Source: Cenococcum geophilum
Taxonomy: Eukaryota
NCBI GenBank assembly: GCA_050273025.1
Contig: CP158635.1
Location: forward strand, 186,001 to 250,000
Direction: 5' to 3'
Length of the DNA stretch: 64,000 nucleotides
Positions 3,428 to 64,000 of this stretch are shown here, one piece after another. Each line of letters opens with the position of its first letter. The first letter of the stretch is position 1. The notes under the pieces were generated by a model, which was not told where the DNA came from, made no database searches, and saw only the letters and a list, made by a program, of their open reading frames with translations. Position numbers and translations under genes: made by a program.

Positions 3428-3644
3428 TATATAGTTATAGCACCTGGTATACGAACGCGTATTTACGCGTTCATGCACCAACCACCTACGTGCTGACTAA
3501 TTAGGGGGGGGCGCGTCAGTATATAGACCACGTAGTCTACCTTAATAGAATTAACAGTTACTACTATCCTAAAGAGTATACAATACTATACGTATTTCGT
3601 GCCCCGGGATATAACTCACTTATATTATTAAATTAGTATAAATA
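3428..3644 (+). repeat. 3' LTR of Copia A1 (217 bp)
   Basis: Homologous to the reverse complement of 40992-41211 (TGT...AACA termini, RIP'd here to TAT...AATA). Homology stops at 3644, where Gypsy C sequence GGACTATAAAATAG begins. Confidence 0.85.
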
Positions 3645-6379: not shown

Positions 6380-7029
6380 GAGAAAGGTATAGAAGTATTA
6401 GAAGAAATTAAGTTAGATAGTATTAATAAAAAAAGGATCGCTAAAGAATAAGTTACCTAAGGGGGACCTAAAAAGAGTAGTTGCTAAACTACTTAGATCT
6501 ATTTCCTTCTTAGTTAGAAAAAAAATCCGTTTTTTTATTGCTAAGTTCTTATAAACCTTATTCTATAAGTTTTTACTTTTTAAAATAGACACTTTTACGA
6601 ACCTTCTTAAGATAAAGTAACTAAGTAAATGCCGCAATATAAGCATTTAAGGCCTTCTGTTCTGTATTATAAGAATATTCTAACTTAATAAGAGCTTAGG
6701 ATAACTTGCTATTAAGATAAGTAGTAATAAATTAAATACAAGACCCTAAGATAAATTAACTAGGGAACTAGACGACTATTAAGAATAATAAAACGCGTAT
6801 ATTTAGTATTAGAAGTAGAGTAAACGTTATAGGATAAACAAATATTTGCTTTAGTGCACTTTAAATAAGAGGATAATTATTATAAAAAAGGACTTACTAA
6901 CGCAATATAGACTAACCCCTTTTTCGTATAATAAGAACACAGAGATGGTATAATTTCACTAAGCGATAATATTGCAGTAACGGTATAGGTATAACATTAG
7001 GCGTATAAACAAGAAGAAGCTTTAGGTAT
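6380..7029 (-). pseudogene. Antisense accessory gene of Gypsy C1: Zn(II)2Cys6-like motif plus helical C-terminus, one 55-nt intron (6800-6746)
   Basis: Minus strand from 7029 reads (M)PKASS...PSLCSY(C)TKKGLV(C)...SS(C)LKCTKANI...S(C)NV; (C) = TAT/TAC from RIP of TGT/TGC. Same frame and intron as copy C2. 3' end approximate. Confidence 0.65.
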
Positions 7030-7137
7030 AATAAGTAACGATATTAACTAAATTAATTAGACAGATATTATACCTCTAGTAGATAACTTAGAGATATTAA
7101 GAGTCTTTAAGGACAAAGATAGAAAGGAGGGAGATAG

Positions 7138-7542
7138 TATTATGAAGGCTTTAAGTACAATATTATAACTACTAGGAAAGGAGTTAGAAGCAGCTAGTTA
7201 GTTAATTAAGGCATAGTCTAAGATAGAACTAGTAGAACTATATAATGAGGAATAGTAGCCAAGGTTATATAATATATTATATATTAAACGAAAGGAATAA
7301 GAGGAATATATATACCTTATATATAAGGCGTACCTTACGTATAGGGAGGATTTCTTAGGAGTACGGTTGTGTATTTAAAGGACTATAGTCCCTACCCAGA
7401 TAGTTCTTCTTAGAATATAATTAGAGTTAATCTGTTAGGCAACTACTCTACTAGTTATTATTACGTTATTAACTTCTTATTTACCTATATACCTAGCCCA
7501 TTAATAAGTCTACCGTAGTTCCTACTATTAGGCTTTATTACA
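7138..7542 (+). repeat. 3' LTR of Gypsy C1 (405 bp)
   Basis: Follows the PPT; homologous to 54144-54567 and 61850-62273 with a different central segment. Confidence 0.88.
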
Positions 7543-7829
7543 TTTTATTAAATAGTATATAAATATAAGAACTAAGTTATAGAATAGCTAACTTATCGCT
7601 ACTAAGCATATAAAGGTAGAGAACTTATTAAGCTTACTATAAAGCGAGTTTTTAATTTTAATTTAACGTATATATATATACAAACGACAATAAGATACTC
7701 TTAATATAGAAGTAACTAGATAGAAAAATAATACTAAGTTAAGGAAATCCTAATTAACGCCTTAATTCTTAACGCTAGAAAACAAGAACGTAATTATAAA
7801 AATCTTTTCTTATAAGAAATTTCTTATTT

Positions 7830-15891: not shown

Positions 15892-16149
15892 TATTAGTTA
15901 CATAAGGTGGTATTACGTAACTACTGTTTATAGATAGTATAATAATTGTTATTCTATGTGTCTTAATAAGGGAAGGCGAGGAGCTTAAGGCTCCTCGCTA
16001 CGCTAGTGCCGCGGCAATATATAACGGTAACTTACTATATATAACGGCAACTTGCTATATATAACGGCAACTTGCCATATATAATGGCAACTTGCTATAT
16101 ATAACGGCAATATGCCTTATATAGTAGCCACTTGCCTTTATTCCCAATA
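15892..16149 (-). repeat. 3' LTR of Copia B1 (258 bp, five 20-bp internal repeats)
   Basis: Direct repeat of 23941-24138; hairpin GCGAGGAGC-TTAAG-GCTCCTCGC at 15976-15998. Confidence 0.92.
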
Positions 16150-19100: not shown

Positions 19101-20470
19101 ATAATAATACAGAAGTTAAAGTTATAGTTATCCTTAAGGGTGAACTTAAATCGGCCAGGGAACTTCTGGTTTATTTAGTAATAATAGTAATACTTTATAA
19201 GATGCTTAATTGCCTTAACCTTAATTTTATAGCCTGTTTGCTAAAGAACCCTAAGTAATTAATAAACAGATAGGTGGCCAAAATAATGGTGTAGTTGGCG
19301 TAACTCTAACTTAGTTAAGTAGCTTTAAGTAATACTCTTTTCTAGTTAATAAAGGAGCAACTAGGGGTAACCCTACTTGCGTATAACAGGCACCTAATTA
19401 TCTCCTTAGATAAGTATATTCTTAGGGTTATTAAGCTTAACGCCTAATTTATCTGTATTTCTAATGCAAAATAAAAATAGAGTATTTATGGGAATAACGT
19501 GAAAAGTAATATACCCTAAGGGGGTTTAAACCCTAATTATGCCAAGAGAAATTATAGTACCTTTGCTAAAACAAATTGTATATTGGCCTGCTGTTAATTA
19601 GTTAATCTAAATAAAGCTATTAAGCTGCTAAAGAGCTTAAACTTAAGGTTCTCCTACTGTAGATACTCCTGCGGCTCCTGTATCTGGCATAATACTATAA
19701 AAGACATTTACCGAGTATCTATTGTTGAAGGAAAACGCGGAACTTTCCTTTAGCTTATTAAAGATATTTAACTTTATAATAGAATAGAGCGTAAATTAGT
19801 TATTAAAAATAGCGATGGTTTATATACTATCTACCTTACTATACTTAGTAAAGTATTAGTTAGGAGAGTAGTCCTTAATTTCTATATTTATAAGGAGCTG
19901 TTTAGTCTTATTAACCTTACCCTTAAGATCTTCTGCGCCTTTATATTAAACTAGAAAGCTTTAAAAGTAAGCCATAGTAACCTTATAATTTTTAACGTTT
20001 TTTATACTTTAACGGAACTTATTATATACCTTGTTTTACTTATTAAGGGAGTATCTAGTTAACTAGCAATTTAGCTTCTTATAAATATAGCACTTCTTTT
20101 AGCGATTACTTCGAAATAAACCTCTATAAGGACCTCTATAATTGCCTTATAGTTAACGTTAATTATACCCTTTACCATATTCCCTACCACGGCCACTATA
20201 TATTTAGTCAGTCTAGTTATAATTATATTAGTTAGGAATACTTAGTTAGGTAGGGTTTTTAATATAGAACTATTAAGGTTCTTATATTTATATCACAGTA
20301 CCTATAGTAGAGCGTAGTTCGGTATATACTCCTTTAAACGTATCTACAGGTTTATATAGCGCTAAATTGCACTTAGGAACGCTACGGTAGGCTAAGATAA
20401 CCTAGTCCCTTAGACTATTCTTATTTTGGTAAGTTTTAATAAGGCTATATTAGATTTTCTAAAGTTTATT

Positions 20471-34685: not shown

Positions 34686-37600
34686 TATTAGTCACATAGG
34701 GTGACTTACCAATAACGACTACTCGAGTAGGGTTATAGTGATATTGGGTGATAAAGCTTATTCATTAGAATGAGGAAGGGCGAGGAACTTAAGGCTCCTC
34801 GCCACACTAGTGCCGCGGCGACACGTAATAGCAACTTACCATCACGTGACGGCAGTTTGCCGTACGTGACGGCAACTTGCCTCATTCCTGACACTAGCAA
34901 CTCTTCTTTTATAGTTGCCATCTAGATATAAATACTGCTTAACTATTATAACAAATATAAATCCTTTTTACTTACTATTGCCATTATAATATAAGTCTCG
35001 CTGTCCTAAAATTTGCCTCTTAGCATATAGCTCTCTTACTTAGGAGTTATAGGTAAGCATTTTGTTTAAAGGGCCGCCAAGGCGCTAGTAGTAAGCGAGC
35101 TAATAGCGATTTTCCATCCCGGGGATGGAAAATCCTAATTGGCTAGGTTGAGTTAGGGTCTATAGAATCCCCCCTTTTAAAAAGTCTTAGTAAGAGAATC
35201 TAACCAATTAAACAACTTCGACCACTGGTTAAAGTTTCTGGATATTTTAAGACCTTACGTAACTAAGAAATTTCTAGGGACTCCCTTTTAACCCAACCTT
35301 TAACTCGTATACGTAGAGTATTTATATTAATAAACGTCTCTAATGCCTTATTTAGGTTTGCCTTTATTATTATATCTACCGGGTTATCTTAGCTATTAAT
35401 CTATTAAATTTTAAAGAGTTCTTAACGCTTATAGGATTGCTAAAGTGCTATAATATTAATTATGAGGCGCTTTTCCTTTATAGTACTAAGCTTAACTAAA
35501 CACTTATAGAGGGAATATAAATCGGTGTATACGATTATAGGGATAATAGAAAGTGCGAGTCGATTTATAATTATCTTTAAGGTAGTTCCAATTGCAATTG
35601 CTATATTAACTCTACTAACCATTCTATATATCTCTAACGCTAAAACACTTTAGGTAACGCGCTTACTCTTAGTTAAGCTCTAATAAATAAGATTGCTATA
35701 GATTATAAAGTCGTTCTCTCTAGTAAATTTATTTGTAATAATAATCTTATATCCTAACTAGAAGCTAAAATCTTTATTATTTATAAACGATCTATTAATA
35801 AATATAAAGAGCTTAGCGGTAGGAAGATTAATAGGCACGTAAAGTAGTCCCTAATTAAAATGGTTTATTTGCTAGGAAAGATATTTATTTAGGGCAAGAA
35901 CGTCGTCCTTAGTTGGTTCCTAGTATTAGGCGGCAACAGAGAGATTAAATAAAGCCTTAGGTTAATAGATAGAAGTAATATAAGCTCTGCGAGCGCGTTA
36001 CTCTATATATCCTTACTTTAGAGAATTAACGTTAATAACATCAATCTTCTTGCTTTAACCCTTCTGGCGTAAAGTAATAGAATCCTTATTTAGGGAGAGG
36101 ATATATCTATTAAAGAGTAATGGTGTTATTAAATTAAGCTTTTCCTTTGGCTTTACTATAAGATTTACCTTTACTAGTTTATCTTCTTTAAGAGCTAAAA
36201 ATCGGTCGTCTCCTAAAATAATTATATTATTAGTTTATATGCCAACAATTCCAAATAGAGTTCCTGTAGTTATAATAAGGAAGTATAGGTTAAATATAGA
36301 AGTAGTTATTAAAAGCTTCTCTTTATAGTGCTTGCTATAGGTAGCCTACTAATAAGTTCCTGCCTCTGCGATTCTATATAATAGCTTAAGCACAACCATA
36401 ATTATATCTTCGGGATATTAGTAGCGAATTTGCTCTAAAAGATATACCAGTATTAAGCGCTAAAGGGGCGTCTCTAATTAAGTGTAGGCTTAAGTAATAT
36501 CTCGCAAATAAACCGCCATTCTATTCTTTATTAAGGAGGGAACTAACGCAATAATAACTTGCTAACTAGCTCGTTAAATCGTAGAAAATTACGTAAGAAT
36601 TACCTCCTTACTATTATTATTGTAACCTTAGATAATAAGCCTTAATTTCTTAAATGGGGCGTTAGTAGCTTTGCCCTTAATCTCGTTAACTATTCTTAAC
36701 TTAAAGATGCGAACTCCATCGAACTTAGTAGGGTTATACTTCTTAAATTTAAAGACTCCTCTTATAATAAGACTATCGATCTCCTGTTTATTAAATACTT
36801 AGAAAGGAGCTCCTAAAGTTATAATACGACCTTCCTTTTAGAGCTGTTTTACGAGTTTAAAGTTAGCCTTCTCCTTAACTGATATAAAGGCCATTAATAG
36901 CTTAACTCTATTCTTGATAGCGGCAACAAATTGCTCTTTAAAATTAATAAGATGTTAGCGATTTCGTAATCCCTTTAGGCGACCTCTACCGCGTCGTAGT
37001 TATAGCGTATCTACTATAATTATATTAGGATTGTGGTCGCCTTCTAGAGCATATTAATTATGTTTCTCCTCTAGGGCATTTTCTATGGCATCCTATAAAG
37101 GCTTAGAACTGTTATCTTTATAGTAAGGCTTAATAATAGTTAAACGGAATTAAGTGGGTCTATAAGGTATCTAAATAGTATAAGTTAATATGGGCCTAAC
37201 TATTCTCCCTTTTTACGCTATACGCGTACCTTAGACTGGAGTGGCAGATTAAGCGTAGTTAAGGTATTTAGGCCATTTTTTATTCCTAATATATCGTTAA
37301 CCTAGCGTGTAGCGTAGAGATGTTATACCTCCTTTATTACCTTATAAATAGCCTTAGCTTATTATATAATAGAGGGAGACGGTAGAGAATCGTTAGTTAT
37401 TTAAGGGTAGGCGCTAAAGACTAATAATATAGGTACGAGTCTATCCGGGCTAGCGGAATTATTAACGGCTTTAACAGCCATTTATAAGGTAAGTTCTTCG
37501 CTAGCGTCCTCTAGTTCTAAAGAGATAATCTTATATACGCGGTATAATGGCGCGTAATATTACTCTACTTTTCTAATACTGTTATATGCCTTAATAGGGA

Positions 37601-40600
37601 CTTTCTTAACCTTAATTACCATTGCTTTTATTTATTGTCGAAACTCTATAGATAAGAAGTTCTTTCCTACATTATGGACGATTTAATTAGGGGGTCCTAG
37701 GTAAATATTAATCTAGTATAATTATAGGGTATCCCATGCGTTTCTAGCTAACATATCCTTTAAGAAACGTGCGGCTTAGAAGAAGGTTAAGAAGTTAATA
37801 ACTTAGAGTACTAGCTTGCCGCTAAGGTATATAACGTTAATAATAATATAGAAGTTAAAGTTGTAGTTATCTTTAAGGCTAAACTTAAATTAGCTAAGGG
37901 ACTTCTGGTATATTTAGCAGTAATAGTAGTACTTTATAAGATGCTTAATTGCCTTAACCTTAACTTTATAGCCTACTTACTAAAGGACCCTAAGCAGTTA
38001 GTAAACAGATAGGTAGCTAAAGCGACGGTGTAGTTAACGTAACTCTAACTTAGTTAAGTGGCTTTAAGTAATACTCTTTTCTAGTTAATAAAGGAGCAAC
38101 TAGGGGTAACCCTATTTGCGTATAACGGGTACCTAATTATCTCCCTAAATAAGTACATCCTTAAAGTTATTAAGCTTAACGCCTAATTTATCTATATCTC
38201 TAATGCAAAATAGAAATAGGGTATTTATAGGAATAACGTAAAAGGTAATGTACCCTAAGGGGGTTTAGACCCTAATTGTGCTAAGAGAGATTATAGTACC
38301 CTTGCTAAAATAAATCGTGTATTAGCCTACCGTTAAATAGTTAATCTAAACAGAGCTATTAAGCTACTAAAGGGCTCGAACTTAAGGTTCTCCTACTATA
38401 GATACACCTGCGGCTCTAGTATCTGGCATAATACTATAGAAGATATTCGCTAAGTATCTGTCATTAAAGAAGAACGCGGAACTCTCCCTTAGCTCGTTAA
38501 AGATATCTAACTTTGTAGTAAAATAGAGCGTAGATTGGTTATTAAGAATAGTAACGGTTTATATACCATCTACCTTACTATACTTAGTGAAGTATTAGTT
38601 AGGTAAGTACTCCTTAATTTCTATATCTATAAGGAGCTATTTGGCCTTATTAACCTTACCTTTAAAATCTTCTACGCCTTTATATTAAACTAGGAAGCTT
38701 TAGAAGTAGGCCGCAGTAACCTTATAATTTTTAACGTTTCTTATACTCTAGCGAAACTTATTATATGCCTCCTTTTGCTTATTAAGAGAATGCCTAGTTA
38801 ACTAGTAATTCGGTTTCTTACAAACGTAGTACTTCTTCTAGCGATTACTTTAAAATAAACCTCCATAAGGACCTCTACCTTTACCTTATAATCGTTAATT
38901 ATACCCTCTACTATATTGCCTACCCCGGCCACTATATATTCGATTAGTCCAGTTATAATTATATTAGTTAGGCGGGTTAATTAAAGTAGGTTAGAGTTAG
39001 GCGTTAAATTACTGTACTTCTTAAAAGCGTAGAGCGGTACTAATAGAAGATCTTAATTAAGTATACACTCCTTTATAAGTATTTGCAGGATTAAAGAGAG
39101 TAAGGTTATATTCTTTAATACCTTAGTATACGCTAATGACTTAATTACGTAGGCTAAAGTCCTTTTAATATGATTCGGATAAACCACGCTAAATTATCTA
39201 AAGTTAATTAAAGAGCTTTTAAAGATAATTAAGCTGAGGGATACCTAGGTTTGTAGCAATAATCCTTAGAAAGGTAGTCTCTCTCTATTCTAATATATAC
39301 TACTACTTATTCTCTTCTGTTTTAAAGTAGTATCTTAACTCATATATTATGCGGTTAAAATTATATCCTTTTCCTGCCAAATGATTATAATAGAAGGTAC
39401 TAGCTCGGCCCTTAAGCATAACGGAATAGGCGTTATAGTATTAATTAGACTCTATTCCCACCTTTTAGTAATAGTTATAGAAGATACGTAGTTTTAAATT
39501 AAGAACATTATATAATTCCCCGCTAAACTTCTTCTCCTAATCCGAATAGAGCTTCGTAAGCTTTATAAGCAATTTTAAACTGCCTCCGATTTAAGATTAA
39601 GATAGAGGAGGTAGGGTTTGCATTGCAGGCTGTAGTGGGGACGTAGGTCTAGTTAGTGGAGTCTAAAGGTCGTTAAATCGCGAAGTAATGGGATCCTGTG
39701 CCTGCTTTTGTTGGGGTATAGTATCCGACGTTAAGGTTATAGATTAAATTAGATACAGAGGAGTTAAAGGCGGAGGTAGGTTCGTCTCTAGAGGTGTATT
39801 ACTTAGGTTCTATCGTAAGTTAAGCTTTCTTATAGTGCGTAGTTGGTGCTTAATCTCTTATAGAGTCCATTCGTGCTCTTCTTTTGCGTTAATAACCTGC
39901 TCCTAAATATTGTCTCTAATAGTACCTCCATCCTTAGGGACAAATACTCTATTCTCCTAAAGGAAGTTACAGAAGTTCTATATAATATCCTTGTTTACGG
40001 GGGCCTATGTTTCCTTTATCTATCTAATAAAGTCCTTCTTTATACATTCCCATAGCGCGGTATTATTGTATTTACTATCCTTATAATATGCTATACGGTA
40101 TAATAAAAATCCATTTAAGTCTTATTTATTAGCGTTTACAAGGTCAATTATAGCTTTATTCTATGTCTTTGGGTTAATATCTTCCTTATACTTCTTTAGA
40201 TAGGTTAACGCTATAATAGGTGCAGAATCGACGGGGTGTTGTACGTTAAAGGTAGGTAGGATTTTCGGTTTTATAGGATCTCGTAGGTTTGCTGTTAAGA
40301 GGTAGGCAATTTAAGATATTATTCAACGCGTTTTGGACGTCATTTAACGCGTTTTAGATGTTAACTTAGGACCCTAGGTTTAGTAACACTTCTAACCTAA
40401 AGTACTTAACCAAATCTTTATAAACGCGGTTGTTCTGCGTAATAGACGCAACTTAGTATCTCCTAGTACTTAGTAACACTTCTATTACTAGTTTTTCGCA
40501 AGTCTAAGGTAGTACAGTATCGCTGGGATCCATTCTATATAAGCATATATGGCACCCCTGTATAAGACTGTCTCTTCTATTTAAAAACCTAGCTGCTCTG

Positions 40601-40859: not shown

Positions 40860-43266
40860 TTTATAAAATAAGATATATTTACTATTATAATTTTTTAAGC
40901 AAGATAGCCTACTAGACTTTTTGCACCTAGTCTCCCCTAAATAGCTAAAAAAAAACAAAAAAAATAAGGTAGAATTATTACTAAAACCTAATGTTTGTAT
41001 CAATTTAATAATACAATTAAGTTATATCCAGGGGCACGAAATACGTATAGTATCGTATACTCTTTTAGATAGTGGTAACTATTAATTCTATTAAGGTAGA
41101 CTACGTGGTCTATATACTAATGCGCCTCCCCCCTAATTAGTTAGTATGTAGGTAGTTAGTGCACCAAATACGTAACTACGCGTTTGGTATACCACGTGCT
41201 ATAATTATACACTAGCGGCACTTAAAAATAACTCAATTGTATAACTTCCGTAATCGCTTTAATAGAGCCGTAAAATATAAAGGAAATATATAGGAAATCC
41301 CTCCCGAGGTGCCTTCTAGGCTGCCTTCTAAACGGTGCTCTAAGTTAGCCGTAAGTCCTACTTACGGTCCGTAAAATAAACTATACGGCCTTTTAACGGG
41401 CCGTAGATAAACTATACGGCCTTCCGGCGGGCCGTAAATGAACTGTAAGTGCTCTGTTAGTCTCGTTCCACCTATTCTATAACCTTTAAATTAAGCTTAT
41501 TTATATTAATTAGGGTTTCAAGGGCTTAATATAGCTTTGCCTTAGTTATAGCGTCCACTAAGTTGTCTCCGCTACTAATCCATTTAACCTCTATAATTTC
41601 ACGTTATTTATAGGCCTGACGTAAGCATATTAGGTTAACCATAAGCCTCTTCTCCTATATTATGCCTAGTTTAACTATATAGTCGTAAAGGGACTTTAAG
41701 TCAGTGCATAAAACTAGGGGTAATTGCTCCAATTATAGGATCTTCTGGATTATTAACTTAATTGCGGCTCCTATATTAAAGCTATAAGCTAGTGCGTATA
41801 GCTTAGAAGCTAATATGCTATGGGTTACTCATTTGCATTTAATTAAAGACTAATATAGTATATTTGCGTCTTGGTTACAGTCCGTAAGTATAATTATAAA
41901 GCCAATCTATAATAATAGGTTCCTATTATTGGCAAAGGAGGCGTCTATAAATACTAGTACGCTAAGGGAATTTAGGTCTAGTGGTATAAAAGTAAGTCCT
42001 CTTATTGCATTATTAATTTACTACTAAATACGCTTATTTAACTACTTAATATTTTCCTCTCACGGATCTATTACCTGGGCCGTAAAGGATAAATTATAGG
42101 TAGATTTGGGTTAACAGACTATGGTAATATAGGCGCCTCTTACACGCTATGCAACATATTAGTCCTTTATATTTATAGTTTTACGGGTTTCTTTATAGGA
42201 ACTAGTAAGGTCTGTAGGCTTTGCTATAATAAGCCTTAGGTTTTAAGCTTGACGTTCCTAAGTTAGCTTAATTAAGTTGCCCTTTTATATAATTAAGCCT
42301 CCGTTAAACTTAATTGGAGTCTACTTAGTTAACTGCTCTTACGGCTTTGCTAAGAACTTTACCTCTTATAGTTTAGTCTCTTTAGCGTCTACAAAAGTCC
42401 GGTCCGCTAAGAAGAGGGTATTATCCGTTTAGAGTCTAATAATACTAAGGCCGTTTAATGGAGTGTATAAGAGGCAGGGGTTGTAGGTTAACTATTCCAT
42501 TTTAAGTTTACTAATATAGTGCTAGTAATACGTTTTAAACCAATAGTTTCTAGCTTCTAGTACTTTATAAAGGGGTTTTATAACCTATAAAATTATTCCT
42601 AGTTGTAAATTAAGCTTAAGGGGTAGTTGTATAAAGATGTCTCTACTTAAGTAGGTATTAGACTATATATAGGCTTGCGAGATATCCCGTAAATAGAGGG
42701 CTATAGGCTTAGTTTGCTGTAGTCTAGGCGTAAGTATAAGTATAATCCATTAACTAACTCGTTAAATTGTAGGTAATTGCGTAAGGACTAAGTCCTTTCC
42801 CTAGTCGTTATAAGCTTATATAATAAGCCTTAATTTCTTAAAGACTTTATTAGTACTAGGGTGCTTAATCTTATTAATAAAGCGTAAGTTAAATATATAG
42901 ACGCCTTACGGGACGTCTTTCTCTATTATAACTGTAAAGACGCCCTTTTTAAGTAGTCCGTTAATCTCTTTACGTCTTAAGTCCGTAAAAGGGTTTTCCT
43001 ATACTAGAACTAATATATCTATAGGCGGAGGTTGCCTTATAGATGTGCTTATAGAGGTTAAATAATTCTTTATTATAGGGTTCTTAGTTATAGGGTGCTT
43101 TTAGGGGCGTCCTTAGCCACGCTTTATGGTAGGTTTAGTAGGTTTAGTAGGTTTCTAAGGGACTTCTAGAGTAGGTAGAGGTGCTTCTAGTTTATCTAGT
43201 TTAATGGTATAGGTATTTTTAGACCAAAAATAGGGTTTTACGAACATGCTTTTAAAGCTAGTTAGT

Positions 43267-52142: not shown

Positions 52143-55100
52143 TTAGTCTATTAGGGAGTTATATACAATACGTTTTGTCTTCTATGGCTAGTAGACAATA
52201 AGGTCCAGTCTAATTACCGCTCTTACGCTATATAAGGACTTTAGAATTAAGTGGGAGGTTATAAACTAAGGTTATATTAGGTCCGTTGCAGTAATATAGG
52301 GCACTATTAACAGCTTATTTAGCCTGTAATTTAACTATTTCGGCTATTGCCTTCCGTATTATAGCTGCTTATTCCGTAATAAACGGGGTAGGAGGGCCTA
52401 GGTTACTTATCCTTAGGTAGGCTCCTAAACTAAGAGAGTAGGTACTAATCCGTTAGGGCTAGCGGTATTATTAATAGCTTTTACGGCCATCTGTAAAGCT
52501 AGTTCCTTTTAAATATCCTTATACTTATCTGTAATAATCTAGTAAGCTCTCTATAAAGCTAGGTAAGCTCGCTTAATAAGCCTAATAGACTAGTGCGCCT
52601 TAACTAGAACGGCTTTTGTTAAAATAGCCATGGCTATAGCGTACTATTAAAATTCCTTACTAATAAAGTTCCTACCGGCGTCGTGGGTAATATACTTAGG
52701 GGGTCTAACATATATATTAATCTAGCAGGTCCGTAAAATGTCTTAAGTGTATTTTACGGATATATTTTATAACTAATAGGCGGCTTAGTAGTGGGTTACC
52801 TTATTAATTATATATAATACTGGGCTGCCGTTAATATATATAATGTCTATATACACTAAGTAATTAAAATTAAGGTTTTTATAGAGAGTGAACTTAAATC
52901 GGCCTAGGGAACGTCTATATTTCTAGCAGAAGGAGCAGTATTTAGTTAGGTAGTTAATTGCCTTTCTATTAACGTTATTATATCTAGAGCGTTTAAGGAC
53001 TCTATATAGCTTTTCAGCTAATAAATAGCCGAAACGGCGGTATAGGCGGTAGATCTTAGTACTAGTAAGGTAGCACGGGTTATAGTTAAAAAATTCCTAA
53101 ATATAGGTCTGTAAAGTTTCTCCCTATATAAGGAACGGGTGTCCGAATTATTGTGTAATTAGTAGGGTAATATATTTACTTCCTAGGACAGTTATAGGGC
53201 TAATTAGGGTGTCTGTAATATTATTATAGTAGACCTATAACCTATCTATATCCGTAAGGCAAAGTAGGAAAGGGGTATCCGCTTTTACTATATGGAAGTT
53301 AACTAGGCTAATTAGAGTCTTAACTGCGACTAATTTAATTAATGCGGTTAAGCTAATGCCAAATTAGACGTTTACAGCCCTAGTTTGCATAGTATTAATG
53401 TCTATATTATTATTTATGGTGGTCTTATATATAAGGTATTATCCGTAACCTATAGTAGACTTCTTAGAGGCACCTATATTAATTATAACGCCGTAGAATT
53501 CTTTAGGGGTATAGCGTTCTATAGTGATATATGTAAATAGGTCCTATTTGCGGTCTGTAATATCCGTAATAGGTCTAATAGGTATGCTTATAGGCTAGTT
53601 TTTGGGTGCAATTAAGTGTATAAAGGAGCGGTTGGCTAATACAGTTGTAATATTAAAGGCTTAGCCGTCCGTAAAAGGTCTAAAGGTAGTTAGGAACGTT
53701 TCAAAGGTCTCCTATTCCTAAGTATTTAAGTTAAAGTTAATTATAAGGGCTTCTATTAACTTGTTAAGAGACTCCTCCACTTCCTCTCCTTTGTAGTCTA
53801 AGATAAACTAGTTAATCCGATTGTTAAATCTCTTTTTAGACTTATTACGTTCTTTCTAGGTGTGCCTTATAGACTAATATCCTTCCTTACCGCATATAAA
53901 GCACTTCTAACTAGTTCGTTTATAGGGGTATGCTTAGCGTGGTTTTTAATATTAATACTGCCAATAATATTGATCAATAATGTTACTAATCAATATTAGC
54001 GAGTATTGGCGAGTATTGGCGATATTTATAATATTTACAGATCTTCTTAGCACCCCTTTAAATTTTTAACTTTAATATTATACGGATAAATTATTAAATA
54101 TTATGGCTTCTAAAGCAGACTTATTACTTTTTAATATAGAGGATGTTACGGACGCTTTAAGTACAATGTTATGACTACTTAGGAAAGAGTTGGAAGAAGC
54201 TAGTTAGTTAATTTAGGTATAGTCTAGGATAGAGCTAATAGAGCTATGTAACGAGGAATAGTAACTAAGGTTATATAACATAATTTATATAATCTATAGG
54301 ATCTGTGTAATCTATAATAGAGTAAATAGAGTACGCGTATATTACGTATAAGAAGGATTTTATAGGAGTACGGTTGTGTATTTAAGGACCCTTAGTCCCT
54401 ACCTAGATAGTTCCTTCCTTATAGTAATTCTTAGAATATAATTAAAGTTAATCTGTTAGGCAACTACTCCACCAGTTATTACTACGTTATTAACTTTAAT
54501 TTATATCACCTATACACCTAGCCCAATAACGAGCCCACTATAGTACCCGCTATAAGGTTCCGTTACATAATTACTACCTAGTTACGGTATTAAATATAGA
54601 AAGTTAAATAACATACCACTAAAGACAGCCACCATAACGCCATTAACGGCGGCAACTACTTTAAGGTTAGGTGACACTAGTATAGCAGATACTAACTTAT
54701 AGCAACCTATAACGGTCGGACAGTTATAAGAGGTAATTGACTAGTTAATAGCTAATAATACAGCGTTAGAAGAAAGGGTTAATGGGATTAAAGTAGTAAA
54801 GGTTAAGTTACTATCTATTAAGAGATTCTTAGGAGAAAGATTAAAACTTAAAGGATTTCTTACGTAAATGCACTTTAAAGTTTTACAGAAAGGGGTAAAG
54901 CTACTAATACCTATGGATCGAATAGCCTATATAGGACTATTCCTATTAGAAAGAGCACTAAAGTGGTTTAAACCTTATCTTACAGAGATATAAACGAACG
55001 GAATAACGACTACTAACTAAGACGTGCGATTTATATTCTTAAGCTAGGAAGGGTTCGCAGAGCGACTTACGTAAATATTTAAAGACCTAAAATTAACAAC

Positions 55101-58100
55101 CACGGCGAAAAGAAAACTCTAAGATATTATATAATAAACCTTAGCAATTAAGTATATAACATAATTCTAGATATTAGCAATATAAGTAGAGTAGAATAAT
55201 AGGGCGCTTATGGCATAGTATAAGTAAGGACTTAAAGCTAAAGTCTAGGATATAATTATTCTAATAGAAGATACGGACACCCTACGGGAATTAATAGATT
55301 AGGCGATTAAGATTAATAATTAAATCTACTAAAGGGAACAGACCAAGAAAGGTTAGGATAGAGTTCTATAGTTATATAAGATATAGAGTACACAATAACC
55401 AAAGCTAAATTAAAAAACATAGTATGGCGCAGAGCTAATAGACCTAAGTACTACTAAAGAAGCCTATAAGAGATAGAGTAAAAGATTATAGAAACCTAGA
55501 GGTTAAGGATTTAGTAATCACAGGATTAAGGAGCAGAGGCTAAACCAGGGATCTTAGTAGTAGAAGACGTTTAGGCGGATTCTATAGCAAAGTTAATGGT
55601 TTAAAGACGGAGCTTATATAAATTATAGAAAACAGGGTTATTTTGCAAGGAATTGCAAAGATAGTTAGAGTTACTATATAATAAAGGGAACTAGACTAAT
55701 AGTAGAAAACACATACGTATAGAGAGATAATAGTGTACTGCGAGGAACAAAAGAATGTTTAATTAGAAGTTTCGCATTTTATTATAATAATGCATGCCAA
55801 ATTTATAAAGATACTAAGTATAGCGTAAGCTATTAGCCATAGAAGCTAAAATCTATAGAGTGTAGAGGAACTAATAAACTAGTTTATAGACCAAATATTA
55901 AAGACAACGAGTTTAATAAAGGCGAAACATTTTATAACAATAAGGTAATAAGGGCGGCTTACTAGGAGCACGCAGACCTCAGAGATATTATAATAAAAGT
56001 AGATGATGATTCCACTACAGAATAGGGAACATTAGTAGGGATTAAGACCCTACTAGACACGATATCTATCGCTTTACAAGACGTAAGAGAAGTAGGACAA
56101 TAAACCACTTCGGTACTTAATAAAGGTAAAAGGCTAAAGGCTTAAGATTCTTAAGACGAGATAAGGTAAGCTTAAGGACCTATAATGGATAATAACCGAT
56201 AAAGCAGAGCAGTAGCTTAGTTTAAAGATATATAAATGAGCTCAGAATAGAGTTTCCCACAGGCACAAGACTCTTAAGATAAGATAAGTAAGATTTAAGA
56301 CTTTTAAGACGAGATAAGAACACTAAGTAAGCCTAGTTAGACTAAGACAGGAGTAAAGCTTAAGTTAGAAGTAAGCTCGGGATTAAAGAATCTAAGGGGC
56401 TAAGAATTTAGAGAACGAATAAGGATACCTATAAGGAAGAAGTAAGGAGCCTTCTTATAGATTAAAGAATCTGTAGTATAAACAGCAACTAGACTAGGAG
56501 ACAAACATATAGACCTAGAAGACTTACTAGTAGAACACAGTGTTTAGCTAGAAAATTGAAAAACTAATACTAAGATTAAGAAGCAAGACGATGTTAAGGA
56601 TCTACTTATAAAATACGAAAGGGAAGAAACTATAGAGGGATTTAGAGTAAGAATTACCTTATAGTAAGAGCAGAAACTAGATAAAAGATCTAGCATATTA
56701 GGACGTATAAGGGACAAAACGCTAGTATAAAGAATTACCAATAGGCCTAGAGCAGGCACACTAAGAGCTAAGTAGCTTATTAAACTGGAAAATAAAGAGG
56801 ATCTAGGGATTCTAACCAGGTTTAAAGAACGACACACTAAAGGCTGTCACGATATAGTAATAAGAAGATACTTCCTTACGGATAAGCCGTATATACTCTA
56901 ATAGCTATATTAAAAGTAGTATAGATAGCGACATAACGATAAGTGGGAAGATTTCTACATATAGTTGGATAAAAAAGTTATTTAAGACCACCTAATTATG
57001 AAAAAGGCTATAAATTATATTAAAGGAGCCTTAATTATAACATTAAAAGATCTAGAGAAATGCTTAGAGGACTAGAGAAGTAAGAGATGTATCTTAGTAC
57101 CTGCGAATAAAGTCGCAACGTTCAGATTAATACGGTAAAGGTTTAAACTTAAGGACGAAAACGAGCCAAGAGTTAACCTAAGACACTAAGCACACTACAC
57201 GCTATTATAGATTGTATATATGGACGACATATATAAAATATACAAAAACCTAAAGGAAAAGAATCGGAAATACCCTATAAGAATATATTAGTTAATAGAA
57301 GAATAAAAGTATAGAAACGCCAAGTATATACATAGTTAGCATCTAGTAGAAGTTTAGGAGTTAGGGGACTTAATACTTTAGCTAGGAAGATTCCTTATAA
57401 AAGAATGCCTAAATAGACGATAGTAGTAGAAATACCTAGAGAATACATATCTATAGTATATTAAAGATAAAAAGCAAACTAAGTATTAGCCTAAGTTAGA
57501 CCAAGTATAAATAGGATTAAGTAGCTAATAGTTAGGAAAAGTAGAGGCCTATAGGACTAGAGGGAGCTAGTAATAGAGCCTTAGACCCTTAAAGGAATTT
57601 AAGGACAACACCTAAATTTACAAGTTAAGTGGCAAGATTAACAGTTTAAGGCATTAATAGATAGTGGAGTAATAAGGAACCATATCTCGCTAATAGCGGT
57701 TAAAAGAATGGGATTACCTTATAGGCAAAAGGAGGAACCTTACCTATTAGTTACAATTTTAGGAGATCCGATAGCCTATAGAGGAGGCATTATTAATCTT
57801 AAAATAGGACCTATTTAGTTAACTATTAAAGGGAGATAAATTAAGATATCTTTTAATATATTACTATTAGGGAATAATAAGGCAGTACTAGGAATGCCTT
57901 AGTTACAGAAATATAATCTAAAGATTAATTAGGTTATAGGTTAGGTTAATATTAGAGATACTTAATAATATAAGATATAATAATAAGCTAAGATAGTATA
58001 GTACTAAGTAGGAGCGACCTATAAAGAAATAGAGAAAGGACTAAGTTACGTACTAAAGAGATACTATAAGTATAGTAAGAAACTATAGTCACCAGAAAAT

Positions 58101-58648
58101 AAAAAACTATTAGAGTATATAGTATGGGACTATAAAATAGAATTGGAACCAGGAATAAGTCTAAGGTTCTTTCTAATCTATAAGCTTACCAAAAAAAAAA
58201 GTAGAGTATTAAAAGAGTTTATCTAGGAAAATCTATAAAAGGGATATATTAGACCATTATAATTATTAGCGGGTTATCCAGTACTATTTATACTAAAGAA
58301 AAATAGCAAGCTAAGGCTATGCATTAACTATAGATAGTTAAATAGCATTACCAGGAAGGATAGGTATCCTTTACCCTTAATTAGCGAGATCTAAGATAGG
58401 ATAGGTAACGCGTAAATCTTTACAAAGATAGATCTAAGATAGGCGTACCATTAGATTAGAATTAAGGAAGGCGATAAATAAAAGGCAGCCTTTAGATTAA
58501 AGGAAGGACTATATAAGCTATTAGTTATGCAATTCGGGCTTATAAACGCACTAACAATATTTTAAAAGCGTATTAACAATATATTAGGAGAATACTTAGA
58601 TAAATTTATTATAGTATACCTTAATAATATTATTATCTACTTAATAAC

Positions 58649-58835
58649 TGTCACGGCACTGACCTGACACGTTGTTATAATTTAGTGTTGTTATAACACG
58701 AGCACGGACCTAACCCCTAAGCGACGTATATATATACCACCTCACCTCCTACATAGATCCTCACACGACATCGTTTGTCAATGATATACAGTCACCTCGT
58801 ACATCGTACCTTGACAGTCCGCACGTACTGTGACA
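58649..58835. mobile_element. Solo LTR (187 bp), essentially un-RIPped, inserted in C2 reverse transcriptase
   Basis: TGTCAC...GTGACA termini; TSD ATAAC (58644-58648 / 58836-58840). C1 shows the empty site at ~4162. Confidence 0.92.
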
Positions 58836-61068
58836 ATAACTAAGGAAGAATATAGGGAACACGTTAAATAGGTCTTAAAGAGACTATAAAAAGAACAAAT
58901 ACTAGTAGCAATTAAGAAATGCGAGTTCTTCACTAGGAAGACCAATTTTATTAGATTTATTATTAAACTAGGCTAACTCAGTATAGATCTAAAGAAGATT
59001 AAGGCTATAGTAAATTAGTAAGAATTAGAGAACGTTACGTAGTTAAGATTATTCTTAGGGTTCTATAATTACTACAGAAGGTTTATAGCGCAGTAGTTAA
59101 AGGATATTAAGCCATTTACGCAATTAACGAAGAAAGAAGAACTATAGGTATAGGGAGAGGAACAAAAGGAACTCTTTAAAAAAGTTAAAGAGTTATTTAC
59201 CCAGGAACCAGTTCTTAAAATCTATTAACTAGGACTAGAAATGGTTATAGAAATAAATATATCAGACTATATACTAGGGGCGTGCTTTATATAGAAATAC
59301 TAAGATAGATGGCACTTAGTAGCATATTATAGTCGGAAAATAACACTACTAGAGTTAAACTATAACATTTATAACAAGGAGTTGTTAGGTATAGTTACAG
59401 CACTAAAGAAATAGAGAGTATTCTTACAAGGTATAGAAAAACTATTTATAGTTAAGATGGATTATAAGAACCTAATAGGATTCTTAATAATAAAGGAACT
59501 TAACTAAAGGCAGGTTAAATAGGCAGAGATACTTATAGAATACTATTTTAAGATTTAGTATACTAAGGGTACAGATAATACGCGAGCAGATGCTTTAAGT
59601 TAAAAAGCTAAACTATAAAATAATAAAAAGCCATTAGGGGCTTTACTGCGAAAAGACACTAACGGATTAATTAGGTATAATTATCCAAAAATTATAGCAA
59701 CTTAAGAAGAGTTAGACAAAGTTTATAAAACACTAGGAAGCCTTTAGGTATAAAGAATTCTAAAAGCATAGCTAGAAGATCTATAGATGGATATATATAA
59801 GAACTAAGAAATAATATATATCCTAAAAAGCATAGCAGAGTAATTTATGGAAGAATTCTATAAGGGGTTAACTTAAGGACATAACGGAGCCACGGGCTTA
59901 GTATTAAGACTTTAAGAGGAGTATATTATTAACGGAATCTAGGGCTTAGCGCAAAAAGTTATAAGAGAATATCTAGATTACTAAAGAAATAAACTAATAA
60001 GGTATAAGCTATATAGAGGACTACAACCTATTAAAACACTAGAGAGACTATAGGAGGTTATATTATAGGACTTTATTATTAAGTTACTAAAGTTAAGAGA
60101 TCCTATTACCGGATAAAATTATAATATAATCTTAGTAATAGTAGACAAGCTTATAAAGTAGGGATACTTTATAGCCTATACAGAAGAGATATTAGTAGAA
60201 GATATTACTAGAATCTATATTAAAGAAGTGTTTATAAGATATAGAGCACTAAGCAAGATTATATCGGACAGAGATTTAAGATTTATAGCAGCATTCTAGG
60301 AGGTATTCTTAGCGGAGTAAGGAGTTAGAGTAGTAACTTCTACCGCATATTATCCGCAGATAGACGGTTAAACGGAAAGACTAAATTAGATACTAGAGTA
60401 GTATCTAAAATACTATATTAATTACGCATAGAACAATTAGGTATTATTATTACTAGTTATATAGTTTATATATAATGCAACACCATAAGAAGGAATAGGC
60501 ATATTACTATTTAAGGCGAATTACAGGTATAAGCTAAGAACATTGTTATTGCCACGTTAAGTAAAGAAGATAAGTAGTATAGCTAAATAAAGAATAGAGA
60601 TATTAATAAATCTTTATAAGAACCTTATAGAAATAGTAAAGATAGTATAATAAAGAATAAAAAGGTATTATAACGCTAAGAGATCTAAGGGACTAGATCT
60701 TAAGAAGGGAGATAAAGTATAGCTACTATATAAAAATTTTAAAAGTTGATAACTAAGTAAGAAGTTGGACTATGTTAAACTAGGACCTTTTAAAATTAAG
60801 TAGAGGATTTTACCAGTTACGTTTAAGTTAAACCTACTAGCTAAAATAAAGATCTACCCTATATAGCACATTGTAATGCTAAAGCCAGTATATAGGAATA
60901 TTAAGCTACTAGTTTACGAAGCAGATATGTATAGAGGGTAAAAAGAAGACAAATAGTAAGTTTTAAAGATTGTTAGTTATAAGGACATTAATAATAAAAC
61001 ATAGTATAAGGTTAAGTAGATAGGCTACACTAAAACTACCTAGAAGCTACTAAAAAATTTAAAAAACG

Positions 61069-61741
61069 CTATAGAAAAGGTATAGAAGTATTAGAAGAAA
61101 TTAGGTTAGGCAGTATTAATAAAGAAGGATCACTAAAGAATAAGTTACCTAAGGGGGACATAAGAAGAGCAGTTGCCGAGCTACTTGGATCTATTTCCTT
61201 CTCTATTAGAAGAGAATCCGTTCTTTTATTGCTAAGTTCCTATAAACCTTATTTTATAAGTTTCCACTCCTTAAAACGAACCTTCTTACGCACCTTTTTA
61301 AGACGGATTAGTTAAGCGGACGCCGCCAGATAAGACTTAAGGGCCCATTACTAAGTATCGGTAGCCTCCCATTTAGCGTCCTAAAAACGGCATAATTTAG
61401 CAAGAGTAATAGATAGTTTATTATCTAGCTATATAGCAGCAGATTAAATATAAAACCCTAAGACAAATTAATTAGGGAACTAGACGACTACTAAGAGTAA
61501 TAGGTCGCGTATATTTAGTATTAGAGATAAAGCGAACATTACAGGATAAACGAATATTTGCTTTAGTATATTCTAAGTAAGAGGACGGTTATTATAAAGA
61601 TAGGTTTACTAATGTAATATAAACCAGCCCCTTTTTTAAGCAGTAAGAATATAGAGATAGTATAATCTTACTAAGAGATAATATTGCAGTAATAGTGCGA
61701 GCACAACGAGCAGTTAAGGAAGAAGAAATTGCTTTAGGTAT
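61069..61741 (-). pseudogene. Antisense accessory gene of Gypsy C2: Zn(II)2Cys6-like motif, 55-nt intron (61512-61458), helical C-terminus
   Basis: De-RIP: MPKAISSS...GEIMPSPCSYCxKKGLVC-x13-CSECTKANIRSSCDVRSVSDAE/W...LDNELSVALAKLRR. The spliced frame is continuous. Confidence 0.7.
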
Positions 61742-62740
61742 AATAAGCAATAATATTAACTAAATTAATTAGACAAATATTATACCTCTAGTAAATAACT
61801 TAGAGATATTTTAAATCTTTAAAAACGAAGATAAAAAGGAGGGAGATGGTATTACGGACGCTTTAAGTATAATATTATAACTACTTGGGAAAGAGTTAGA
61901 AGAAGCTAGTTAGTTAATTTAGGTATAGTCTAGGATGGAGCCGATAGAGCTATATAATAAGGAATAGTAACTAAGGTTATATAATATAATCTATATAATC
62001 TATAGGATCTATATAATCTATAATAGAGTAGATAGAGCACGTATATATTACGTATAAGAAGGATTTTATAGGAGTATGGTTATGTATTTAAGGACCCTTA
62101 GTCCCTACCTAGATAGTTCCTTCCTTATAGTAATTCTTAGAATACAATTAGAGTTAATCTATTAGGCAACCACTCCACTAGTTATTATTACGTTGTTAAC
62201 TTTAATTTATATTACCTATATACCTAGCCTAATAACGAGCCTACCGTAGTACCTACTATAAGGTTCTGTTATAGAGGAGTTATTTAACTGCTAGTAAAAA
62301 AAGACTTTTAACCTATAGATACTAGTTAGTAGGGATTTGCGAAGCAAATCCTATCCCTCCGTCGTACTGCGCAGCCCCCTGCCCCGCTACGCTCCCTCTA
62401 TAAAAGATATAAAGTCAGCTACTACGCAGCCTCCTTTATATCCTCGCAGGGGGAAGCGTAGTAGGGTAGGGGACTGCGCTGCGGGGGCTGCTTTGCAGTG
62501 GGGGGTAAGCTTTAGACAAAGCTTCGTGCGGAGGTTCGCGCAAAGCCTTATGCAGAACCGCGTGCGGCGTAAAGGCATGTGGACGTATAGATGTCTAGAC
62601 GTGCGGACGTTTATACAGGCATTTATATAGACGTTCGTATAGGCGTTCGTGTAGGTAATTAATTAATAAATCGATTAATTGTAGAGCCGTTCGAGTAGAT
62701 AATTAATTATATCAGTGCTGCGTGTTAGTAGAGCTTAGAG

Positions 62741-63070
62741 TAGAGTGTCGTGTAGAGCTGCGGGTAGAGCCTCGCGTAGAGTTTTTAAGTAGAGCTTAAG
62801 TAGAGCTCCGTGCAGAGCCTTAATAGAGCTTTAAGCAGAGCTTTAAGCAGAGCTTTAGTAGAGCCTCGTGCAGAGCTTTGAGCAGAGCTTTGAGTAGAGC
62901 TTTGAGCAGAGCTTTAAGTAGAGCTTTAAGTAGAGCTTCGAGTAGAGCTTCGAGTAAAGCTTCGAGCAGAACTTTAAGTAGAGCTTCGAGCAGAGCTTTA
63001 AGTAGAGCTTTGAGTAGAGCTTTGAGCAGAGCTTGGTTAGAGCTTTAAGTAGAGCTTTAATAGAGCTTCT
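62741..63070. repeat. 12-bp tandem repeat array (AGAGCTTTGAGC / AGAGCTTTAAGT) inside the hAT
   Basis: More than 20 units; related units recur at 63120-63145 and 63400-63500. Confidence 0.88.
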
Positions 63071-64000
63071 CTATATAGACCTTGTATTTAGGCTTATTTT
63101 TAAAGGCCTTGTAAAGGGCTTTATATAGAGCTTTAAGTAGAGCTTTGTATAGGCGTTCGTGCAGGCGTTTGTGTAGACATTTATAGAGACATTTATAGAG
63201 ACATTTATAGAGACGTTCGTATAGACAATTATATGGGCAATTATATAGATATTTAATTAATTAATTGTATAGGTATTCGTACGGGCAATCATGCGACATT
63301 TATAGAGCCGTTCGTAAAGACGATTGTATGGCGACTAATCGTATGGGCGTTCGTACGGCCGATTGTAGAACTTCCTAGTATATTAGTGCTGCATGTTAGT
63401 AGAGCTTTAGAGCTCTATATAGGGCTTTAAGCAGAGATTTGAGTAGAGCTCTAAGTAGAGCTTTAAATGGAGCTTCATGCGGAGCTTTTGCAGAGCTTTA
63501 GTAGGACGCGTATAGTCGTAAAAAAATCTAACTGCCCTTTTACTACGCCACTATAAAGCTATTATAAAACTAGCTGCTTATAGATAACATAGATAGTAGA
63601 GTAAAGAGGCTATATTAGAGATATAGAGCTTTAATTATATATAGTTGTGGTATAGTTAGGGGTAGTTAATATTTAATTTTGGTAAGGGAACGCGTATTAA
63701 GACATTTTATAGCATACAAATACTTCTACACCTAAGAATATATTATAAAACTGCCAATATATGCCAATAATTTATATAATCTTTAATTCGAAATAAGTAT
63801 ATTTCTATTATAATTATTTTATTTAAATTATTGCTAATATTTAAATATTAACACTACAAATATTGGCTGGAATTTCGCTTATTAAAAACCACGCTGGGTA
63901 TGCTTTTATATGGGAGTTGCTTTGGTGGTTATAGGTAGGACTTAGTCGGTACGGGTACTACTAGCGGTAGCGGCGGTCCGTAAAGTAGGCATCTAAGTTA

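Follow-up and report, generated by a model that had tools for sequence, protein, structure and literature searches.

Gag and pol are generally held to be all that a retrotransposon with long terminal repeats (LTRs) requires, so what is the status of a further, intron-bearing reading frame that runs against both of them? The question is raised by a 64-kb stretch of Cenococcum geophilum DNA (positions 186,001 to 250,000 of contig CP158635.1; the whole stretch is called the window below), in which two copies of a Ty3/Gypsy element, family C, share such a frame between pol and the 3′ LTR. An initial annotation of this DNA had proposed that the frame is the relic of a spliced antisense gene, and that its product was a transcription-factor-like protein with the spacing of the Gal4-type Zn(II)2Cys6 cluster. 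The first of these proposals is supported by the cysteines, splice sites and frame conservation of relatives and by intron-less open reading frames (ORFs), and we consider it highly probable that the region is what repeat-induced point mutation (RIP) has left of a genuine antisense accessory gene of a Ty3/Gypsy chromovirus family. The second proposal fared worse, and the nature of the protein is weighed below against its rivals.

The gene, its parts and its second copy in the window are as follows.

61069 to 61741, minus strand: antisense accessory gene of copy 1, from start position to stop, with 11 in-frame stops including the terminal TAG.
61739 to 61741, minus strand: start codon position, ATA in copy 1 and ATG ancestrally.
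61513 to 61741, minus strand: exon 1, 229 nucleotides (nt), encoding a basic N-terminus and the six-cysteine domain, tabulated codon by codon over 81 copies.
61541 to 61651, minus strand: six cysteine codons, starting at 61651, 61642, 61621, 61579, 61570 and 61543, which read TAT, TGC, TAT, TAC, TAT and TGT in copy 1.
61458 to 61512, minus strand: intron of 55 nt, phase 1 (6800 to 6746 in copy 2), now ATACGC...TTAG and ancestrally GT(G/A)CGC...TAG.
61069 to 61457, minus strand: exon 2, encoding the long helix and, after it, the conserved tail, which is acidic and hydrophobic, with TAG at 61071 to 61069.
61742 to 61843, no strand assigned: spacer from the gene start to the 3′ LTR, with a sense-strand polypurine tract at about 61831 to 61843.
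6376 to 7029, minus strand: antisense gene of copy 2, with exon 1 at 7029 to 6801, the intron at 6800 to 6746 and exon 2 at 6745 to 6376.

The common antisense frame with a six-position motif, first noticed in the initial annotation, is indeed present in both copies (61741 to 61069 and 7029 to 6376). Read from 61741, the frame of copy 1 opens with IPKAISSS and continues through YSYCLKKGLVYITLVNLSL, two stops and PSSYLEYTKANIRLSCNV; read from 7029, that of copy 2 contains CSYYTKKGLVYIALVSPFL, again two stops, and LSSYLKCTKANICLSYNV. With either cysteine or tyrosine allowed at each of its six positions, the motif common to the two is C-x2-C-x6-C-x13-C-x2-C-x8-C. Inside the x13 loop lie two in-frame TAA codons in both copies (61594 to 61589 in copy 1), at which relatives have R or W (first site) and Q (second site); the initial annotation says nothing of these stops. 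In copy 2, exon 2 has in addition lost 21 nt at one place and gained single nucleotides at 6525 and 6434. Both window copies of the gene are dead. Un-RIPped relatives (P0093, P0092 and P0011) nevertheless match the window by tblastn at 61735 to 61457 and 61443 to 61072, and the two family-C copies were all that four relatives of the antisense protein matched in the window.

How widely does the gene occur? The translation of copy 1 exon 2, with stops written as X, matched four short ORFs in a large protein collection, and a profile of those four brought in 82 cluster representatives at E ≤ 0.001. Metagenome contigs, when scanned, gave at least 389 stretches encoding a relative, 80 of which were taken with their flanks; 79 of these loci, together with the two window copies, form the alignment of 81 copies to which the counts below refer. 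All 80 loci are RIPped, with a GC content of 0.27 to 0.42 upstream of the match, and none among them has all six cysteines. To judge from their surroundings they belong to the same element family, because an integrase adjoins the gene directly, on the opposite strand, in 71 of the 72 loci with enough flank, and an LTR lies within 1.2 kb upstream of it in 63 of 68. The antisense gene is thereby shown to be a standing part of the element. The six cysteines and the start codon are also conserved in relatives 57–77% identical. Searches with un-RIPped relatives yielded P0092 (152 residues) and P0093 (239 residues), and distant un-RIPped relatives stop at the same ...P-x-P-F, overlapping the chromodomain.

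The limits of the gene can be given as well. At the start codon position 19 of the 81 copies have ATG and 60 have ATA, an upstream in-frame stop at 61771 is kept in 79, and the relatives P0092, P0094 and P0096 to P0098 begin with MP(P)K; this position lies 102 nt from the LTR edge at 61844. Of 79 loci, 76 have an exon 1 whose length divides by three, and nine have an exon 1 free of stops; four retain five of the six cysteines. At the other end, the ORF terminates inside the chromodomain (60954 to 61100), as the initial annotation had suspected when it let the tail overlap the end of that domain. With its final 13 codons the gene overlaps pol tail to tail, over 41 nt if pol stops at 61107 to 61109.

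Were the six motif positions once all cysteines? The copy at 61741 to 61069 keeps Cys2 and Cys6, that at 7029 to 6376 keeps Cys1 and Cys5, and both have TAT and TAC at Cys3 and Cys4. On the last point the initial annotation was right, while its assignment of the surviving cysteines to the two copies was reversed, if its first copy was the one listed first. RIP converts TG to TA, never the reverse. In the 81 copies, TGY codons (Y, a pyrimidine) stand at Cys1 to Cys6 in 27, 32, 15, 12, 64 and 28 cases, and TAY codons in 52, 47, 66, 67, 14 and 50. Since RIP can only have turned TGY into TAY, the codon counts show cysteine as the ancestral residue at all six positions, including the third and fourth. 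Decayed arginine codons were considered as another origin of these sites and rejected, CGY being found there in 0–2 copies as against 33–46 at true arginine sites. The un-RIPped P0092 and P0093 have cysteine at six of six positions and thus, as the initial annotation had supposed of such relatives, cysteine and not tyrosine at positions 3 and 4; they read ...M-P-S-C-S-R-C-A-[KE]-x-x-L-V-C-x13-C-x-E-C-x8-C-[DN]-V-R-S-V-S-D-A-E-W-S-R-V...

The intron, too, stood up to examination, and does so at the same place in both copies (61512 to 61458 and 6800 to 6746). Over the 81 copies its first base is G in 10 and A in 70 and its second is T in 79, whereas its 3′ end has A in 80 and G in 78, with almost no insertions or deletions in between; the GT-AG borders expected of relatives are therefore found in them. 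Removal of the intron links the motif frame to the second frame that ends in TAG at 61071 to 61069. Four relatives (P0092, P0093, P0011 and P0025) are without the intron at the predicted junction and read ...DAE-W-SRV. P0094 and P0095 keep it, reading into the intron after ...D-A-[EK], and P0090 and P0015 enter exon 2 from the intron, with G (codon GGG) where the spliced forms have W (T joined to GG). Tryptophan in spliced and glycine in unspliced forms is what is predicted for a phase-1 intron that ends in AG before GG. P0090 lies on a contig of 120,785 nt, the four junction-crossing ORFs on contigs of 941–1423 nt, and the intron is kept, with G at the split codon, in genomic contigs, namely that of P0090 and all 80 metagenome loci. 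A variant junction is seen in P0099 (DAE-CTFHVR-SAAARLD, compared with DAE-WSRVQ-SAAAKLD in the spliced form), which could mean that another splice site is used or that this copy has lost most of its intron. In relatives, the spliced ORFs span 138–239 residues.

Conservation of the protein can be judged independently of any single copy. For this purpose 78 copies were clustered by transversions only, and the six subfamilies that comprised four or more copies each received a de-RIPped consensus, giving 15 pairs. The values per site at codon positions 1, 2 and 3 are listed here with two controls.

Antisense gene, all differences: 0.158, 0.124 and 0.300.
Antisense gene, transversions: 0.0375, 0.0239 and 0.112.
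Control, pol in its own frame, differences: 0.131, 0.136 and 0.230.
Control, LTR counted modulo 3, differences: 0.196, 0.164 and 0.168.

The pattern is no weaker in the antisense gene than in pol, and it is absent in the LTR. It holds in exon 1 (0.127, 0.097 and 0.290) and in exon 2 upstream of 61300 (0.272, 0.159 and 0.474), although the two exons lie in different absolute phases, with a shift of one base between them, exactly as a 55-nt intron requires; the intron itself has 0.218 differences and 0.093 transversions per site. This excess of third-position differences in the spliced frame, seen alongside its controls, is the ground on which the antisense protein can be said, from the alignments, to have been under purifying selection while the family diversified. 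The frame conservation foreseen at the outset is thus found, with the periodicity of purifying selection and in the spliced frame.

Where would transcription begin? P0093 is open upstream of its coding region, and its residues 8–23 align by tblastn to 61859 to 61812, a stretch that takes in the polypurine tract and the opening bases of the 3′ LTR. The antisense mRNA would accordingly start in or next to the 3′ LTR, and the antisense start that the initial annotation had placed in the LTR gains indirect support from the collinearity of the P0093 upstream sequence with the LTR edge. The spacer at 61742 to 61843, which presumably holds the antisense 5′ untranslated region or core promoter, varies less between subfamilies than any other part of the region (0.099 differences and 0.012 transversions per site and pair, the latter against 0.093 in the intron). 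Of 24 sequencing runs, 20 (17 of these recorded as RNA) contain only 4–8% of the words of the stretch. Four RNA runs were aligned to the window at 80% likeness. In one of them, run X21, raw reads cover 60946 to 61175 up to about 10 deep, with all first mates on the plus strand; these reads differ by at least 14 letters and continue into unlike sequence, as a diverged relative would. As a side observation, the summed depths of contigs over the 3′ LTR (61820 to 62271) reach the hundreds in two metatranscriptome runs, against 20–30 or less inside the element, depths that sum solo LTRs and other copies on either strand.

What, finally, was the protein? Ancestrally it would have had about 205 residues, comprising a basic N-terminus, the six-cysteine domain, a helix of about 100 residues and an acidic hydrophobic tail. 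K+R outnumber D+E in the N-terminal domain (10 to 4), and the acidic tail, rich in F, L, P and S, has 1 K+R to 6 D+E. AlphaFold2 predicts for P0093 a single helix at residues 98–197, with a predicted local distance difference test (pLDDT) score of 92–98 over residues 101–190, and for P0092 the corresponding helix at 77–151. This helix is rich in E, A, R and K and has moderate heptad order, its a and d positions being 50–88% hydrophobic.

The resemblance to Gal4-type zinc clusters lies in the general plan: six cysteines in two C-x2-C-x(6-8)-C triads, a fungal host, then a long helix and an acidic tail. The Gal4-type consensus is C-x2-C-x6-C-x5-12-C-x2-C-x6-8-C, and a run of arginine and lysine between its second and third cysteines contacts CGG. 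In the ancestral motif the spacings are x2, x6, x13, x2 and x8, so that the loop is one residue over the classic range, and the arginine/lysine run is absent, the residues between Cys2 and Cys3 being A-K-E-G-L-V in P0092 and A-E-K-K-L-V in P0093. The Pfam profile of the family, Zn_clus, is listed at E ≤ 10 in six of 16 domain-bearing sequences, with a best score of 14.5 bits in P0096 (13.6 in P0092 and 8.1 in P0093), and in five of the six the alignment places the first triad, P-S-C-x-R-C-A-K-x4-C, onto the second half of the profile. In a phmmer search of the PDB the top match was PPR1 (1pyi, E 0.56), whose cluster resembles P-S-C-x-R-C-A-K-x4-C in its second half. Among ESM Atlas neighbours (scores up to 0.91) are Ascomycota proteins of about 200 residues with no common Pfam family. 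One Atlas cluster bears the automatic name 'Zn(2)-C6 fungal-type domain-containing protein' (score 0.91), and another has DUF3716 on 28% of its members (score 0.77); all of these serve as leads only. A regular expression for strict Gal4 spacing, aimed at host Zn2Cys6 genes in the metagenome loci as material for comparison, had 0 matches there.

From these elements a mechanism can be sketched. An antisense mRNA would start in or beside the 3′ LTR and be spliced, while the sense genomic RNA would carry the intron through retrotransposition, the intron surviving because its splice signals are on the antisense strand only. Zinc would be bound by the six cysteines, the helix would pair copies of the protein, and the protein may act in the nucleus on the LTR of its own element or on host silencing. 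In layout (cysteine cluster, coiled coil, acidic tail) such a protein would be like the Gal4-type factors. That it really was a zinc-binding, helix-paired nuclear regulator of this sort, contacting nucleic acid, is a tentative proposal, possible but short of probable.

A series of results weighs against that proposal or against parts of it. Zn_clus (PF00172) stays under its 21-bit gathering cut-off in all 16 domain-bearing sequences, and Pfam gave no match on the window's own exon translations. The family profile, run against PDB sequences, found no Gal4-type chain, its matches being chance C2H2 sequences of the 'GEKPYKCxECGKAF' kind at E 0.03–1.2. Foldseek against the PDB returned 0 matches. 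In two AlphaFold2 runs (P0093 and P0092) the cysteine domain has a pLDDT of 49–66, and its short helices begin at or beside Cys1 and just before Cys4. As modelled, the helix could stand alone as a stable single helix instead of forming a coiled coil. Neither CGG nor CCG is enriched in the de-RIPped LTR, where each occurs 7 times in 526 nt against about 8 expected; its two CGG-Nx-CCG pairs, and the two places where direct CGG pairs overlap, are likewise at chance level, and the CGG-type sites that the initial annotation wished to have looked for are thus not set apart from the background. The antisense spliced reads it had called for did not appear either: none of the four RNA runs aligned to the window showed a joint at 61512/61458, and contigs cross the intron unspliced (metatranscriptome records 11 and 12 of run X2). 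Such contigs would seem neither to support nor to refute splicing, as sense genomic RNA would also give them. The spliced ORFs themselves stand on short contigs (those of P0092, P0093, P0011 and P0025) that are presumably derived from RNA. The Gal4-type identity, and with it the transcription factor, is therefore not supported as proposed, given the sub-threshold Zn_clus scores, the absence of a Gal4-type PDB chain and the low-confidence cysteine fold. The domain is best described, on sequence criteria, as six-cysteine and Zn2Cys6-like in spacing and context, with membership in Zn_clus or DUF3716 not demonstrated.

The main rival accepts the gene and parts company at the domain. According to it, the six-cysteine region is of the DUF3716 type or an orphan, and the protein would have served the RNA, capsid or integrase of the element as adaptor or chaperone, or have bound a host silencing protein. 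DUF3716 (PF12511) is a fungal cysteine-rich domain to which P0095 aligns over the whole profile (3–59 of 59, E 0.018, 15.4 bits) with all six cysteines covered, though under the 22-bit gathering cut-off and in one of the 16 sequences scanned. The lack of a Gal4-type arginine/lysine run in P0092 and the alignment of Zn_clus with the first triad alone point the same way, as does the Atlas cluster in which DUF3716 recurs. DUF3716 proteins are moreover described as encoded in another fungal transposon, the class II element REP9 of Zymoseptoria tritici (PMC8232023), a hint that a cysteine-rich domain of this type may be a recurrent transposon passenger. Against this stand the order of cysteine cluster, long helix and acidic tail, which is the layout of small Gal4-type factors, and the lead from the Atlas cluster named after Zn(2)-C6. 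We regard this rival as a serious possibility that does not reach the point of being probable. Membership in DUF3716, a domain of unknown function, would not explain the mechanism.

Could the antisense RNA matter, and not its protein? Pairing with the genomic RNA, it might feed or block RNA silencing, the ORF being incidental; antisense transcription through the end of pol would give double-stranded RNA with the genomic RNA, and an idea of this kind is raised for antisense ORFs of plant elements in a review (PMC7264820). The third-position excess, however, shifts phase across the intron, which denotes selection on a protein, and the six cysteines and the start codon are conserved in relatives at 57–77% identity; the two roles could yet coexist. 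As a replacement for the protein, we find the RNA improbable.

Capture of a host gene on a single occasion, by transduction, or a nested insertion would make the gene a guest in the element rather than a fixture of it. Retroelements are known to capture genes (PMC7264820), but the gene has the same place, orientation and intron in 71 of 72 copies, this holds in subfamilies up to 15% apart by transversions, and the distant un-RIPped relatives share the ...P-x-P-F stop over the chromodomain, so that capture is very improbable here. Least credible of all is a chance or 'shadow' frame arising from a sense-strand extension of pol or from RIP-biased composition: pol has no certain stop until 61272 or 61299, opposite exon 2 about 134 codons stay open in a plus-strand frame and tyrosine is common (7.4%) in RIPped DNA, but the relaxed motif occurs just 5 times in the six frames of the window (two of the five being the family-C copies), the fastest sites in 61110 to 61299 are antisense third positions, so that the constraint there is not on pol, no part of exon 1 falls in a pol frame, relatives have spliced ORFs of 138 residues and more, and the notion is contradicted already by the cysteine codon table, the un-RIPped ORFs and the codon-position pattern.

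The element to which the antisense gene belongs has these main features.

54138 to 62271, plus strand: family-C copy 1, a full-length, RIPped Ty3/Gypsy element with LTRs at 54138 to 54565 and 61844 to 62271.
60954 to 61100, plus strand: chromodomain at the C-terminus of pol (Chromo, PF00385, in relative L040).
61107 to 61109, plus strand: probable pol stop codon TAG (in 79 copies, TAG 72, CAG 4, TAA 2 and CAA 1).
3626 to 7543, plus strand: family-C copy 2, 5′-truncated, with its 3′ LTR at about 7132 to 7543.

The two LTRs of copy 1 are 90.7% identical over 428 nt by self-BLAST. With stops written as X, Pfam finds in this copy RVT_1 (1.1e-16), RT_RNaseH_2 (1.6e-17) and SH3_Tf2-1 (2.7e-7), the SH3 domain of Tf2-type integrases, together with the aspartic protease gag-asp_proteas at 8.7e-5, under the Pfam cut-off; the integrase core rve was not found in the RIPped copy 1 at E ≤ 0.01. 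The chromodomain is recognized in L040, the least RIPped relative, over profile positions 1–53 of 53 (E 2.1e-5, 24.8 bits against a cut-off of 25.1), as residues 9–57 of a segment aligned to window positions 60930 to 61109, and in three more relatives at E 2.9e-4 to 0.054. Reverse transcriptase, RNase H, protease, SH3_Tf2-1 and chromodomain, with the LTR pair, make the host element a Ty3/Gypsy chromovirus. Copy 2 matches 58108 to 62271 in two segments, 3626 to 4167 and 4161 to 7540, at 80–84% identity (self-BLAST), and position 61843 of copy 1 corresponds to 7131 in the alignment of the two. Over the gene region the copies differ by 123 transitions and 34 transversions, a transition-heavy difference in keeping with the pattern of RIP.

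Pol probably, though not certainly, ends at the TAG at 61107 to 61109, because the fastest sites in 61110 to 61299 are third positions of the antisense frame (second positions of the sense frame). Later candidate stops are at 61272 and 61299. Nearly all pol-frame stops after the chromodomain (61107 to 61299, plus strand) have a rare CAG, CAA or TGG alternative among the 79 copies, and the stop is uncertain from RIPped copies alone, since RIP has nearly fixed many stops throughout the family. The open plus-strand frame opposite exon 2, at 61043 to 61445, has its fastest sites following the antisense frame, and looks like a shadow ORF, not an extension of pol. The window as a whole is AT-rich and repeat-built, with a GC content of 0.26–0.40. 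Just outside copy 1 is a direct repeat, 62727 to 63202 against 62846 to 63321 (offset 119 nt, 71% identity), which is probably a degenerate tandem array. Three other large repeat pairs, 16082 to 20236 with 34826 to 38972, 1 to 1336 with 52152 to 53486, and 1345 to 3642 with 40994 to 43262, one direct (86%) and two inverted (88% and 84%), represent other element families.

How new is such a gene? Antisense extra genes have, to our knowledge, been recorded for some plant elements and for the fungal element Boty of the grey mould, and none of these genes has a known function or a recognized domain. The layout as such is already known from brtn of Boty: the family-C gene, on the minus strand at 61741 to 61069 between the chromodomain end at 61100 and the LTR start at 61844, has the brtn type of placement. 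Such extra ORFs, antisense and lying between pol and the 3′ LTR, are listed for Grande of maize (gene23), RIRE2 of rice, Retand of Silene and PvRetro13 of bean, with brtn as the fungal example (PMC7264820), one that also appears in PMC8365987 and PMC4227169. Boty and family C are both fungal chromodomain Gypsy elements with an extra gene on the opposite strand between pol and the 3′ LTR, a likeness of layout. In Monilinia, one transcript is reported to match both a truncated Pol with chromodomain and BRTN (PMC5987419), which suggests that the two lie close together there too. The plant ORFs are described as present in most copies of their families and conserved like the proteins of the element, a nuclear regulatory role has been proposed for them, and, according to the review, none of these ORFs has a known clear similarity to other proteins (PMC7264820). 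The family-C gene resembles them in position and orientation, with no likeness in sequence reported, and behaves in the same way, lying beside the integrase in 71 of 72 loci and being conserved like the element's own proteins; it differs in that its protein has a defined Cys6 motif and a demonstrated intron. In the open-access literature on brtn-type genes, as far as its accessible text goes, we found no description of a six-cysteine or coiled-coil domain for such an antisense gene, nor, in that on Zn2Cys6 or DUF3716, to the same extent, any of an antisense cysteine-cluster gene in a retrotransposon.

A parallel of another kind is offered by HBZ of human T-cell leukaemia virus type 1 (HTLV-1), a spliced antisense gene expressed from the 3′ LTR, whose product is a dimerizing transcription factor of the basic leucine zipper (bZIP) class. 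The likeness is one of logic, namely a small, long-helix protein made from a spliced antisense mRNA of the 3′ LTR; HBZ belongs to a human retrovirus and to the unrelated bZIP family, and the comparison is an analogy only. An antisense promoter in the 3′ LTR of HTLV is on record (PMC7264820). One may then ask whether a spliced antisense gene for a zinc-binding, dimerizing nuclear protein is widespread in fungal chromoviruses. Such a protein would be a counterpart of HBZ that binds the LTR of its element or host chromatin, and so adjusts the transcription of the element or evades silencing, through a domain that is a divergent sister of the Zn2Cys6 and DUF3716 clusters. We think this rather unlikely as it stands; if true, it would link the largest fungal transcription-factor family to mobile elements.

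Both window copies being dead, the value of the finding lies in the family and not in this locus. Family C provides a clean case of an antisense accessory gene, with a defined intron, six conserved cysteines, a helix of 100 residues, hundreds of copies, relatives that are apparently expressed, and clear purifying selection. In it one sees how an intron-bearing gene can travel with a retroelement, the genomic RNA being the antisense of the intron, and it supplies a concrete protein candidate for self-regulation or counter-silencing.

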